Shown: positions 4,063-26,119, numbered from the stretch's first letter. The stretch: 64,000 nt of DNA from a virus (IMGVR_UViG_3300022752_000026:60942-124941); one strand, 5' to 3'. Notes: generated from the letters alone by a model not told the origin. A program made the numbers and translations.

Positions 4063-7000
4063 ATGAGTTTTTCAGGCGACGTGACTACACGGAGAATAGT
4101 TGGCCAGTTCAAGAAAGTAAACGGCCAACCTGCGTCTGGAACTGTCACATTTTCTGCATCCAGCAAGATAGAAGATGACAATGATGAAATTGTCTTGTCT
4201 GGTCCTATTCAACTAACTCTAGACAACACTGGGTCTTTTCAGGTTGACCTTCCAACAACTGATAATAGAGATTTATCTCCAATAGGCTGGCACTACACGG
4301 CAAGAATTCGTGTTTATGGTGCTAAAGCATATGACTTTGATTTCTACTTGCCTGTAGGAGATGGCAGTAACGTAGATATAACAAAAATTGACACAGTAAG
4401 CCAAACTGTTTCTTCTCAGGCTGCTGTAAATGTTCCAAGAGGCGCAGTTGGTCCACAAGGTTCAACTGGTCCTGCTGGTCCGACTGGTCCAACTGGTACT
4501 CAAGGTCCAACTGGTCCATCTGGAGGACCAACAGGTCCAACCGGTGCAACAGGACCTCAAGGACCAACAGGTGCAACGGGTCCACAAGGAATTCAAGGCG
4601 TAACAGGTCCGCAAGGTGTAGTTGGTCCGCAAGGTGCGCAAGGTGTTCAAGGTGTAACAGGTCCGCAAGGTGTTCAGGGTGGAGTTGGTCCGACTGGTGC
4701 AGTAGGTCCAACTGGTGCAACAGGCGCAACTGGTGCGCAAGGCGTTACTGGTCCAACTGGTGCGCAAGGTGTTCAAGGTATTCAAGGTGCTACAGGTGCC
4801 ACTGGTGCAACAGGTGCTGCTGGTACATCAGTAACAATCATTGGAACTTTAGCAAGTGTTGGCAATTTACCTGCTACAGGAAATCCTGGTGATGGATATT
4901 TAATAAATGGAAATCTGTATGTATGGGACAACATAAATTCTGAATGGGACAATGTTGGAAACATTCAAGGACCAACTGGTGCGCAGGGTGCAACTGGTCC
5001 GACAGGTGCTACAGGTGCAACAGGTGCGCAAGGAATTCAGGGAGCAACTGGTGCGCAAGGACCTACTGGTGCGCAAGGAATTCAAGGAGCCACTGGTCCA
5101 ACAGGTGCTACTGGTGGTACAGGACCAACAGGAGTACAAGGTCCGCAGGGTGAGCAAGGCATCCAAGGTATCCAAGGTATCCAAGGTGTTACCGGGCCAA
5201 CTGGTGCTACTGGTGCAACAGGTTTGCAAGGTCCTACTGGTGCAACTGGTGAAGTCGGTCCTACTGGTGAACGTGGGTTTGGTGCACTTTCTTGGACATA
5301 CAAAGTAAACACAACGACTTTAACAGACCTAGACCCTACTAATGATTACATAAGTTTTAATGCTGACCCCTATACCTCAGCAACACAAATCAAAGTAGAC
5401 GATAATCCCTATGGAGTAAATACAACTCTTCACCAATTATTTTTAAGTATTCAAAGTGGTTATTTAACACTAACAGAACAAAGTAATCCTTCAACATACG
5501 TTACCTATCAAATTACGTCTTGCGTAAGTGGCACAAGCACAAATGAAGGTGCGTTTCCAAGTTATGTAATCTTCAACGTATCGTTAGTTAGCACTTACGG
5601 AGTAATAAATAACGAAGATTTTGTTACGTTATCTATTGGACTTGTTGGTCCTCAAGGTGATACAGGTCCTACTGGTGCTACAGGTGCTGCATCTAATGTT
5701 CCTGGACCTACTGGTCCAACTGGTGCGCAAGGACCCACTGGTGCTACAGGCGCTGCGTCAACAGTAACTGGACCAACAGGTGCAACTGGTCCTCAAGGTG
5801 TTCAGGGTGGAGTTGGTGCTACAGGACCAACTGGAACGCAAGGTCCTACTGGTGCAACGGGTGCAACAGGTGCGTCAGGAACATTCCCTAATTATGTTGG
5901 TGATTATGACCAGGGTGCTGGTTATGCTATTGGAAGTATTGTAAGCACTCCAGTTGGAAGTCCTTATGGTGAACCTGGTCAATTATTTATAAGAGTAAAC
6001 AATCCAGGCAATCCTGGTTATCCACCAGGAACTTCCTCATGGGAACCTTATTACGCTGGTTCTACAGGACCAACTGGTGCAACAGGTGCGACTGGACCTA
6101 CTGGTGCGACTGGAGATACTGGTCCAACAGGTGCAACAGGTGCTCAAGGGGTAACAGGACCAACTGGTGCAACAGGTGCAACAGGAAATACAGGTCCGAC
6201 TGGTGCTACTGGTGCTACTGGTGCAACTGGTGCTCAAGGTACTGGTGTAACAATCCTTGGTTCTTATGCAACATATGCTGCTTTAATTGCCGCGCATCCA
6301 ACAGGAACTGCTGGGGATGGTTATTTAGTTGCTGGTGATTTGTATGTTTGGGACGCTGTTGCTGGTGACTGGAACAACGTCGGAACAATTCAAGGACCTA
6401 CGGGTGCGACAGGAGCGACTGGCGCAACTGGCGCTACTGGTGCTCAGGGAATTCAAGGTCCAACCGGTGCTCAAGGAAATGTCGGTCCAACCGGTGCTCA
6501 AGGAAATGTCGGTCCAACCGGTGCTCAAGGACCAACAGGTGCGACTGGCGCTGCTTCAACTGTACCTGGACCTACTGGTGCAGTGGGACCTACAGGTGCT
6601 ACTGGTACACAAGGTGTTAAAGGAGATACAGGACCTACTGGTGCAACTGGTTCAGTAGGACCAACAGGTGCAACTGGTGCTCAGGGTATTCAAGGTGTAA
6701 CAGGACCTACTGGTGCAGTGGGACCTACTGGTTCTCAAGGTATCGCTGGACCTACTGGTGCTACTGGTGCACAAGGTGTTGGTCTAAATATTCTTGGTTC
6801 ATATCCAGACTACGCAACATTTATTGCTGCTCATCCTTCTGGCTCTGCTGGAGATGCTTACATTGTTGACGGAAATCTTTATGTATGGGATTCAATAAAC
6901 AGTGAGTGGGACAATGTTGGTTATATTGAAGGACCAACTGGACCATCTGGTGCAACTGGTCCTACAGGAAACTTTTTAGTTGCTGGCAACACTGGACCTA

Positions 7001-8634
7001 CAGGAACCATTGAGATTGGTGACGCTTGGTTTAATGCCGAGACAGGAAAAGTTTATGTTTACTATGACGGATATTGGATTGAAGTAGGAGCGGCGCCTGT
7101 TGGTGCTACAGGACCTACAGGAGCAACTGGTTCTAGTGGTTCTATTGGAGCAACAGGACCATCAGGAAAATTCACTACAAGTTCATCAACTCCTCCAGGT
7201 TCTCCAAACGAAGGAGATGCTTGGTATAACACAAATGATGGTTCAGTTTATGTTTACTACGATGGTTTCTGGGCTGAAGTTGGTGTCCCAGAAATTTCTT
7301 CTGGTCTTAATGGTGCAACTGGGCCAACTGGACCATTTGGACCAACTGGGCCAACTGGACCGCAATCAACTGTACCTGGACCAACAGGACCTCTTGGACC
7401 AATTGGACCAACAGGTGTACAAGGAAATACTGGACTAACTGGTGCTACTGGACCAACTGGGCCAACTGGCGCACAAGGACAAGGGCTTGTAATTCTTGGT
7501 TCTTACGCTTCAGAACAAGCACTAAATGCTGCTAATCCAACAGGACAGATAGGTCAAGCATATTTAGTAAATGGAAATTTATATGTATGGGACGGAAACT
7601 ATTGGCAAAATGTTGGAACATTACAAGGACCAACGGGTGCTCAAGGTTTAACTGGTAATACAGGTGCAACGGGACCTACAGGTGCACAGGGCAATAATGG
7701 TCCTACAGGTGCAACGGGTGCGACTGGACCAACAGGAATTGGAATTGGATTTGATGGAGTATATACAAATTCAGTTTTAACAATTGATACTGGAACAAAA
7801 ACATTTACAACAGTTGCAAGCACTAAATCTTTTGTTGTTGGTTCAAGAACTAGGCTAACAAGAACAGATACTGGACTTCCTTTCACTTGGATTGAAGGAT
7901 TTATAACTAATATTTTAGGACAAGACATAACTATAAACATTGATACTGTTTATAATCCTGAAGGCCAAATTTCAATGAATGCCTGGATTTTGTCTTTGTC
8001 TGGAGAAAAAGGAGCAGTTGGGCCAGCAGGACCAACGGGACCAACAGGACCACAGGGCGCAGCGTCTACTGTTCAAGGTCCTCAAGGCAATGTCGGACCA
8101 GCCGGACCTACAGGTGCAACAGGACCAACAGGAGCCGCTAGCAATGTTGTGGGTCCTACAGGTGCAACAGGAGCAACAGGAGCAACTGGTGCGACAGGGA
8201 CTTTCAATACTGGCTCTTGGACCACATATACTCCAACTTGGACTGCTTCTGCAAGTAATCCTTCAATTGGAAACGGCTCAATTAGCGGAAGATATATTCA
8301 ACTAGGGTCTTTAGTATTTGGAAACATTAGAATTACTGCTGGTAACACTACTGATAGAGGTAATGGAACCTACAGAATAACTGTTCCATTGTCAGGAGTT
8401 AACGTGAGAAACTTTGACCCAATTGGTCAAGTAACTTTCAAAGACTCTTCTGCTTCAAAAATATTTATTGGTACAGTAATTTTTAATAATTCAGACCCGA
8501 CACGTCTAGAAATGCTTGTTCACAATCAGATTGCTGATTTTGATGAAGGTTTCTCAGCAACACATGACTTGCCATTCTTCTTTAGTGAGAATGATGAGAT
8601 TTTAGTTCAGTTCCAATACGAGAGGCAGGTGTAA
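4063..8634 (+). CDS. Collagen-like fibre/minor tail protein (1523 aa)
   Basis: N-terminal beta-sandwich typical of actinophage minor tail proteins, long GPT/GAT/GxQ triplet tracts interrupted by globular modules, C-terminal WTTYTPTW...GRY knob-like domain. Confidence 0.85.
5161..5187 (+). repeat. 9-bp tandem repeat (atccaaggt)x3 in collagen tract
   Basis: Read directly. Confidence 0.8.
6457..6531 (+). repeat. Perfect 27-bp tandem repeat (ggtccaaccggtgctcaaggaaatgtc), about 2.8 copies
   Basis: Read directly; encodes (GPTGAQGNV)n. Confidence 0.85.
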
Positions 8635-25548: not shown

Positions 25549-26119
25549 TTACCCTAATTGGTTTACTGTCACTGCTCAGACTCCTTTTTCAAAATATCTT
25601 GGAGAGTTCAAAGATAAGCAAGTAGACTTTTTACAAATAGGAGCATACACAGGAGATGCTACCCTCTGGCTTTTTGAGAATATATTGACTAATCAAGAAT
25701 CAACCTTAACAGATGTAGATACATGGGAAGGCTCTGATGAAGTTGTTCATAAAAAGATGGACTGGGACGACGTTGAGACAGTGTATAACTCAAGAACAAA
25801 ACAATTTATTGAAGATGGGCGTCTTATAAAGATAAAAAACACTAGCAACAACTTTTTCTCAACAAACAACAATATGTTTGATTTTATATATGTTGATGGG
25901 GACCATACTGCTATGGCTGTTCTAAAAGACGGACTTAGTGCCTTTAATTATCTAAAACCTGGCGGAGTTCTAGCCTTTGATGATTACACATGGAGTGAGG
26001 GAAGCGGCGACATAATGAGAGACCCTAAGCCAGCAGTAGATGCTTTTCTTTTATTCCACAAGAAAAATATATCTGTTATTGAGATAGGGAGTCAGGTTTG
26101 GCTAAGGAAGAACGCTTAA
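25535..26119 (+). CDS. Class I SAM-dependent methyltransferase (Methyltransf_24-like)
   Basis: LQIGAYTG motif I, VDTW, FDFIYVDGDH, LKPGGVLAFDDY. Confidence 0.9.
   Translation: MTKNSYPNWFTVTAQTPFSKYLGEFKDKQVDFLQIGAYTGDATLWLFENILTNQESTLTDVDTWEGSDEVVHKKMDWDDVETVYNSRTKQFIEDGRLIKIKNTSNNFFSTNNNMFDFIYVDGDHTAMAVLKDGLSAFNYLKPGGVLAFDDYTWSEGSGDIMRDPKPAVDAFLLFHKKNISVIEIGSQVWLRKNA

Follow-up and report, generated by a model that had tools for sequence, protein, structure and literature searches.

The 64,000-nt stretch of viral DNA analysed here (IMGVR_UViG_3300022752_000026:60942-124941; hereafter the window, with all coordinates counted from its first letter) forms the right half of a single 124,941-bp virus record with an estimated completeness of 86%, and is part of a 125-kb freshwater actinophage. 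A block of plus-strand genes, spanning approximately 1900 to 26119, carries five genes for Thr-rich collagen-like proteins and closes with a glycosyltransferase (GT; 24475–25548) and a class I methyltransferase (MT; 25535–26119), whose candidate role in modifying the fibres is the subject of this study. A WhiB gene follows on the minus strand (26076–26651), and the G+C content of the window is approximately 42%. The closest named relative, the lake metagenome-assembled Actinomycetia phage DSL-LC01 (59% identity in the GT), displays the same layout, with collagen genes leading to the GT and then to a convergent WhiB gene; the accessible part of the DSL-LC01 paper predicts that the host is an actinobacterium and is silent on both the collagen genes and the GT. 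The window DNA was found in metagenomes from lakes, rivers and drinking water (seven studies).

Five plus-strand open reading frames (ORFs) exceeded the cut-off of the Pfam Collagen family (PF01391; E-values from 2.1e-76 to 4.1e-09), and these contained all 23 Collagen matches of the entire 124,941-bp record. The largest (4063–8634; 1523 amino acids; E 2.1e-76) has globular inserts between its 20 Gly-X-Y runs, and is followed by proteins of 349 amino acids (8638–9687, with an all-beta C-terminal domain), 464 amino acids (9690–11084) and 959 amino acids (12184–15063), all three beginning with an adaptor marked by the motif 'IDFPNSP', and by a short protein of 178 amino acids (15761–16297), which is the collagen gene closest to the GT and is kept in close relatives. 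When triplets were counted in Gly-X-Y runs of at least four, the five genes held 228, 33, 39, 79 and 23 triplets respectively (402 in total), with Thr occupying 57, 61, 51, 59 and 43% of the Y positions, i.e. 227 Y-position Thr residues overall. An earlier note, made from the sequence alone, had described five Gly-X-Y genes with Y positions dominated by Thr in GPT and GAT triplets. The gene count and the Thr richness held up, and GPT was the top triplet in all five genes; however, GPT and GAT together are the commonest pair only in the 4063, 12184 and 15761 genes, GAT being rare in the 8638 and 9690 genes. By sequence all five belong to the Collagen repeat class, the triple helix itself being predicted.

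The 8638, 9690 and 12184 proteins matched tail-fibre and collagen-like minor-tail families in PHROGs, and their 'IDFPNSP' segment matched a tail-collar family. Because of these matches we read the proteins as fibres, which retains one half of the 'collagen coat or fibre set' of the earlier note and drops the coat. The adaptor common to the three fibres comprises approximately 35 N-terminal amino acids with the pattern 'IDFPNSP...W.W.G..W', and in the 4063, 9690 and 12184 genes the collagen tracts are separated by recurrent globular inserts of approximately 50 amino acids ('ILGSY...YVWD...W.NVG'). Between 12200 and 15860, contigs from one DNA run and one RNA-library run connect collagen tracts within the 12184 gene with one another as well as with the 15761 gene (e.g. 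12537 to 15844, skipping 3.3 kb); these links either reflect differences between strains in fibre content or number of repeats, or arose where the assembly jumped from one repeat to another. A C1q/TNF-like end, also proposed for one of the collagen genes, could not be confirmed: residues 190–349 of the 8638 protein gave no Pfam C1q (PF00386) match at E ≤ 0.01 and no relevant PDB sequence match, and the AlphaFold model of this C-terminal region, built from six sequences, has ten beta strands at a predicted local distance difference test (pLDDT) of 50.6, with no Foldseek match below E 0.1 for a model of such low confidence. The sole lead towards C1q was an Atlas cluster with PF00386 in 26% of its members.

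The GT is a protein of 357 amino acids with a Glycos_transf_2 domain (PF00535, residues 5–105, E 6.1e-11) and tetratricopeptide repeat (TPR) families at approximately residues 245–340, and it belongs to phrog_13126 (E 5.6e-114). At least 6,993 homologues occur in public data. Both aspartates of its DxD motif (D84 and D86) are invariant among 32 sequences, and the model built from 32 homologues (pLDDT 91.5) is compact and two-domained, with the alternating strands and helices of a GT-A-like fold at residues 3–165 and helical repeats at residues 176–356. In PDB sequence searches the catalytic half matched Listeria GmaR (5.5e-6) and ThuS/SunS (9.1e-5 and 1.5e-3). Over the whole length, the best fold matches of the model were the peptide glycosyltransferases SunS/ThuS (PDB 7msn, 7msk and 7msp; E 8e-18 to 2e-14; TMq 0.62–0.66); a second tier, at approximately 1e-8 to 1e-6, comprised WrtF, the teichoic-acid enzymes RmlT, TarP and TarS, and the TPR region of GmaR, the teichoic-acid enzymes being some ten orders of E-value weaker than SunS/ThuS. 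Since SunS/ThuS head the fold matches and wall-polymer enzymes trail so far behind, the GT, as modelled, groups with protein or peptide glycosyltransferases and not with DNA- or wall-polymer enzymes, the latter being the grouping that the earlier note had named as fatal to its proposal. The GT is not a member of the SunS family as defined in NCBIfam (TIGR04195), scoring 26.6 bits against a cut-off of 350.

The MT gene overlaps the end of the GT gene by 14 nt, and Pfam bears out the GT2, TPR and methyltransferase assignments made earlier for this overlapping pair. Its product of 194 amino acids carries a Methyltransf_24 domain (PF13578; E 8.6e-17; 62.4 bits against a gathering cut-off of 26.3), as do all of its listed Atlas neighbours. 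An MT homologue overlaps the GT stop by 4–14 nt in 18 of 80 viral loci, and all 18 fall within one supported clade of the GT tree, which has 16 rows once identical sequences are removed and includes the window; in a locus of another GT clade (L081) the MT immediately precedes the GT. No MT homologue was found in any of 80 bacterial GT loci, which argues that the MT is a phage-side addition and not part of the bacterial module. Among 20 longer proteins with the MT domain, one (P0127) joins a full-length GT to an MT, each 54% identical to its counterpart in the window, a fusion that a frameshift error in two overlapping genes could have produced artificially. This concern does not extend to a more distant fusion of the order GT2-TPR-MT (P0128) or to 11 fusions with a GT25 domain (P0129–P0139), and one further protein is fused to a carbohydrate-binding module. 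The GT25 family also contains the animal collagen galactosyltransferases. Given these fusions, the MT is best regarded as the partner of a glycosyltransferase and most simply as a sugar O-methyltransferase, and we put the chance that it methylates a sugar at about even.

Such a pair might instead protect the phage genome, with the GT glycosylating phage DNA against restriction and the MT acting as a DNA methyltransferase. Some weak PHROGs matches of the MT are indeed named 'DNA methyltransferase', and a paper in the ISME Journal on Nanopelagicales phages mentions DNA protection for phage glycosyltransferases. We nevertheless consider this highly improbable, as the TPR domain and SunS-like fold suggest a protein or peptide acceptor, and the MT is of the Methyltransf_24, O-methyltransferase-like type that is fused to glycosyltransferases elsewhere. 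Known phage DNA glucosyltransferases have other folds.

The GT family is found beside Thr-rich collagen genes well outside the window. A profile of the phage enzymes retrieved more than 586 bacterial genome loci, the best 80 of which (42–55% identical over the full length; mostly Clostridia or Bacilli, including Brevibacillus, Desulforamulus and Flintibacter) were analysed, and in 60 of these a collagen ORF (at least 12 triplets) lay within 3 kb of the GT homologue. Collagen density fell from 36.6 ORFs per 100 kb at less than 1 kb from the GT to zero at 5–10 kb, which served as an internal control, and Thr made up 62% of the Y positions. Among loci with at least 3 kb on both flanks, 33 of 41 had an adjacent collagen gene. 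A second scan with a bacterial-centred profile added 56 further loci (39–55% identity across both sets), with collagen within 3 kb in 35 of them, in 18 of the 32 with full flanks, and with Thr at 68% of Y. In the 80 viral loci, 53 collagen ORFs lay upstream of the GT (in 562 kb of sequence) versus 4 downstream (652 kb), all 58 of 58 were on the GT strand, and 27 of the 42 loci whose upstream flank reached 9 kb or more had collagen there. Ten records with a collagen-free flank were inspected along their contigs, and six have collagen elsewhere. All four complete GT-bearing phage genomes (DSL-LC01, PaBG, Lu11 and Erwinia SNUABM_2) have Collagen matches; in PaBG, Lu11 and SNUABM_2, which are jumbo phages, the matched genes are annotated as encoding tail fibres or virion structural proteins.

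A discriminating comparison was that between viral chunks encoding (Gly-Pro-Thr)x4 and those encoding (Gly-Pro-Gln)x4, retrieved by degenerate-pattern search. A GT homologue was present in 16 of 119 of the former versus 1 of 117 of the latter (Fisher p 1.7e-4), and at 40% identity or more the counts were 14 versus none of 117 (Fisher p 8e-5), although the two sets may sample different phage lineages. The association with GPT collagens that the earlier note had asked after is thus seen in bacterial loci, in viral chunks and in the upstream, same-strand bias of the viral loci, with exceptions among both phages and bacteria.

A quick maximum-likelihood tree of 147 GTs placed 65 phage rows, together with one 6-kb contig from a 'Prosthecobacter' metagenome-assembled genome (MAG), in a single group (SH-aLRT 96). 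The Bacillota enzymes, mostly collagen-adjacent, lie outside this group; PaBG/Lu11, like three MAG rows from outside the Bacillota, join the tree on the phage side. No root was set for this tree, in which the jumbo phages have long branches. Two nominally bacterial rows stand among the phage GTs: the Prosthecobacter one (L082; 6.4-kb contig) is probably a misbinned phage contig, and the other (L083), from a MAG of the Nanopelagicales, the order to which the host likely belongs, may stem from a prophage or phage contig. In ten related phage loci (L024, L026, L033, L034, L038, L039, L040, L060, L061 and L065) the GT ORF is longer (580–588 amino acids), its extra C-terminal part resembling a second GT domain by eye but not by Pfam. 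In one of these (L038:319-11755) the region upstream of the GT holds five 2-oxoglutarate-Fe(II) (2OG-Fe(II)) oxygenase genes (three with PF13640 above cut-off and two weaker), as well as genes for a methyltransferase, a glutathione peroxidase and an AurF-like oxygenase; no collagen was seen on this 90-kb contig, and the cluster may be a protein hydroxylation and glycosylation island.

Several observations weigh against collagen fibres as the acceptor. An adjacent collagen gene is missing from 8 of the 41 full-flank bacterial loci of the first scan and from 14 of the 32 of the second; 15 of the 42 viral loci with long upstream flanks have no collagen in that flank, and 4 of the 10 records followed along their contigs have none at all (all four are fragments). 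In PaBG, Lu11 and Erwinia SNUABM_2 the GT homologue lies beside the head protease, far from the fibres, and only 17–25% of the Y positions of those fibres are Thr. Six more distant MT homologues (33–44% identical) have neither GT nor collagen within 8 kb; one of them, however, sits between genes for a GDP-mannose dehydratase, a GT11 fucosyltransferase and an epimerase, a GDP-sugar/fucosyltransferase cluster that counts in favour of the sugar-methylation reading. The co-occurrence counts, moreover, ignore shared ancestry. Finally, the GT of the window lies 8.2 kb beyond the last collagen gene and behind a conserved terminator-like hairpin, PHROGs places its family under 'moron/AMG', and the GT–MT pair looks like a separate, moron-like cassette.

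Some of these exceptions would be expected if the enzymes glycosylated other virion or phage proteins, such as Ser/Thr-rich globular parts of the fibres, capsid or tail proteins, the type of acceptor reported in mycobacteriophages, or the large proteins encoded between the fibres and the GT. This stretch (16315–24408, plus strand; PHROG matches, syntenic in relatives) consists of non-collagen structural genes, namely a 1089-amino-acid virion structural protein (phrog_5838), two small ORFs, a 1109-amino-acid Gly_rich_2 protein, and proteins of 102 and 129 amino acids, the latter matching a tail-fibre PHROG. The GT therefore adjoins non-collagen structural genes directly, a placement that favours such acceptors, as do the collagen-free GT-bearing records and bacterial loci, the jumbo-phage homologues beside the head protease, and the acceptance of Ser by Clostridioides difficile SgtA as described in PMC7157674. 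This broader acceptor range is in our view rather unlikely, given that the GT family is specifically enriched beside Thr-type collagen and that the collagen tracts of this phage offer the 227 Y-position Thr residues counted above.

The separate appearance of the GT–MT pair derives mainly from its flanks. A G+C-rich hairpin followed by a T-run (24426–24445, plus strand) occupies part of the 66-nt gap that separates the GT from the structural block, and a second terminator-like hairpin (26100–26134, plus strand) marks the junction of the MT with the convergent WhiB gene. The first is kept in all seven of the closest relatives with the same gene order (L002–L007 and L018), and in L002/L004 the stem differs in sequence and still pairs; it is this conservation that gives the pair the look of a separate or attenuated cassette. 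In many other lineages the GT abuts or overlaps the preceding gene. The earlier note had the same-strand block closing with the GT and MT. Order and strand are as stated, with the five collagen genes on the GT strand and 8–20 kb upstream, but the pair is a hairpin-bounded cassette and not simply the last genes of a fibre operon. Only approximately 28 nt separate the T-run from the GT start codon, a distance too short for a promoter of its own, so that the GT is probably expressed by read-through from the late genes with attenuation at the hairpin, the simplest reading of the sequence. Two runs of one lake metatranscriptome sample contain the region, and one contig (X8) bridges 23490–26038, thereby spanning the hairpin and reaching both enzyme genes; these are contigs only, with possible DNA carry-over, and show neither transcription nor read-through.

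A cassette of this kind could alternatively be an auxiliary 'moron' acting on a host target, either an envelope glycan or a host protein, so as to block superinfection or remodel the cell. The position between two terminator-like hairpins and the PHROG category fit this, relatives carry swappable genes (a halogenase and 2OG oxygenases) at the same site, and the ISME Journal paper proposes cell-wall or DNA roles for the glycosyltransferases of freshwater actinophages. Against a host target stand the high-confidence compact GT-A and TPR model, for which no membrane-protein or lipid-carrier family was matched (in searches without a dedicated transmembrane prediction), the closeness of the fold to peptide glycosyltransferases, the bacterial relatives that adjoin collagen genes and not wall clusters, and the probable dependence of the GT on late-gene read-through. 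We therefore regard this role as unlikely.

Taken as a whole, the data are best explained by O-glycosylation of Thr in the collagen fibres followed by methylation of the sugar, to which we assign a rough probability of 60%, and the fibre Thr residues are the probable targets of the GT. The soluble GT2-TPR enzyme would bind a fibre chain through its TPR half in the cytoplasm of the infected cell and, with a nucleotide sugar of the host as donor, add one sugar, likely an N-acetylhexosamine or hexose, to Thr in the Y position. The Methyltransf_24 enzyme, whose translation is coupled to that of the GT, would then O-methylate the transferred sugar. A single sugar from the host pool that is then methylated is the most economical proposal, because the virus record holds no sugar-synthesis genes and no second GT1 or GT2 enzyme: it has one GT2, and its Pfam search gave no Epimerase, NTP_transferase or Glycos_transf_1 match. 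DSL-LC01, unlike the window phage, also carries a UDP-galactopyranose mutase and a second GT. The glycan may stabilize a triple helix that lacks hydroxyproline and alter the surface chemistry of the fibre, with possible effects on protease resistance and receptor contacts, and partial termination at the hairpin before the GT probably keeps expression of the enzymes below that of the fibre genes.

Other features of the region bear less directly on glycosylation. Among the fibre genes lies a repeat protein of 318 amino acids (11054–12010, plus strand) with DUF6242 above cut-off and a weak Reelin subrepeat match below it; its DSL-LC01 homologue (45% identical) is annotated as a 'photosynthesis system II assembly factor'. 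The 1109-amino-acid protein (20356–23685) has long poly-Gly runs besides its Gly_rich_2 domain, and its DSL-LC01 neighbour is mis-annotated as an 'ALK tyrosine kinase receptor'. On the WhiB side, the contig covering 26125–28823 had a word depth of 128 in one metatranscriptome library, compared with 14–57 for structural-block contigs, while depth in the DNA run of the same study was flat at approximately 50. This is only a hint that the small minus-strand genes of this stretch are highly expressed, as contig depths cannot rank genes.

Our literature search retrieved no paper describing the pairing of GT2-TPR enzymes with collagen in phages, although supplementary files may hold such annotation, and the only mention of collagen-like proteins in the Nanopelagicales phage paper is as one component of a variable island. 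Only a few examples of glycosylated bacteriophage virions have been demonstrated. If O-glycosylation of fibre Thr is correct, it would explain the Thr richness of phage collagens, make fibre glycans a new variable in the host range and virion stability of abundant lake phages, and provide a two-gene tool for producing glycosylated, hydroxyproline-free collagen in bacteria. More speculatively, the very large and hitherto unrecognized family of phage enzymes may consist of dedicated collagen O-glycosyltransferases, one clade of which is paired or fused with a sugar O-methyltransferase, so that a methylated Thr-glycan coat on the fibres of aquatic phages replaces hydroxyproline and tunes host recognition. 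This generalization is tentative and on balance doubtful; were it true, fibre glycosylation would be a common and overlooked layer of phage–host interaction in lakes.

Known systems resemble the proposed one to different degrees. The glycans of Bacillus anthracis BclA include the methylated sugar anthrose, and worm cuticle collagen carries glycosylated Thr; the features in common with the proposed system are Thr-linked glycans on Gly-X-Thr collagen, a methylated sugar and the stabilization of a triple helix without hydroxyproline. These systems differ in using other enzymes and multi-gene sugar pathways, none of which was found in the window phage. Mycobacteriophage-encoded glycosyltransferases reportedly modify the phage's own virion proteins, and in that work, attributed to Freeman et al. 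2023, the modified proteins are said to be capsid and tail tube, not collagen fibres. SunS/ThuS share the GT-A domain with a helical repeat domain, and so provide the best whole-length fold match with a weak sequence match, but they are only 14–16% identical to the window GT and modify Cys of small bacteriocin peptides. Listeria GmaR, a flagellin O-GlcNAc transferase whose TPR is proposed to recognize the protein substrate (PMC9638930), has the same order of GT2 then TPR, is likewise a Ser/Thr O-glycosyltransferase of proteins, and matches the window GT in the sequence of the GT domain and the fold of the TPR; it is longer (637 amino acids), with linker and antirepressor domains, whereas the window GT ends after the TPR at residue 357.

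The closest parallel is SgtA of C. difficile, here compared by published description only. According to PMC7157674, SgtA has 358 amino acids, with GT-A at residues 1–260 and four TPRs at 262–358, its gene adjoins bclA3, and in vitro it transfers beta-O-GlcNAc onto Thr (also Ser) of peptides that include two 15-residue sequences. The window GT is of nearly the same length (357 amino acids) with the same N-terminal GT-A and C-terminal TPR arrangement, acceptor-type GPT and GAT triplets dominate the window fibres too, and its family adjoins Thr-rich collagen genes in genomes that are mostly Bacillota; neither bacterial genome scan had a C. difficile locus in its best 80. The differences are that the window GT is phage-encoded, that its putative substrate is tail fibres and not a spore layer, that it lies 8.2 kb from the closest collagen gene instead of adjacent to it, that it is coupled to a methyltransferase, and that in the tree the enzymes from phages stand as a separate group. 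We regard the locus as a real and coherent feature, a probable phage-borne variant of SgtA/BclA-type collagen O-glycosylation that has been extended by a methyltransferase.

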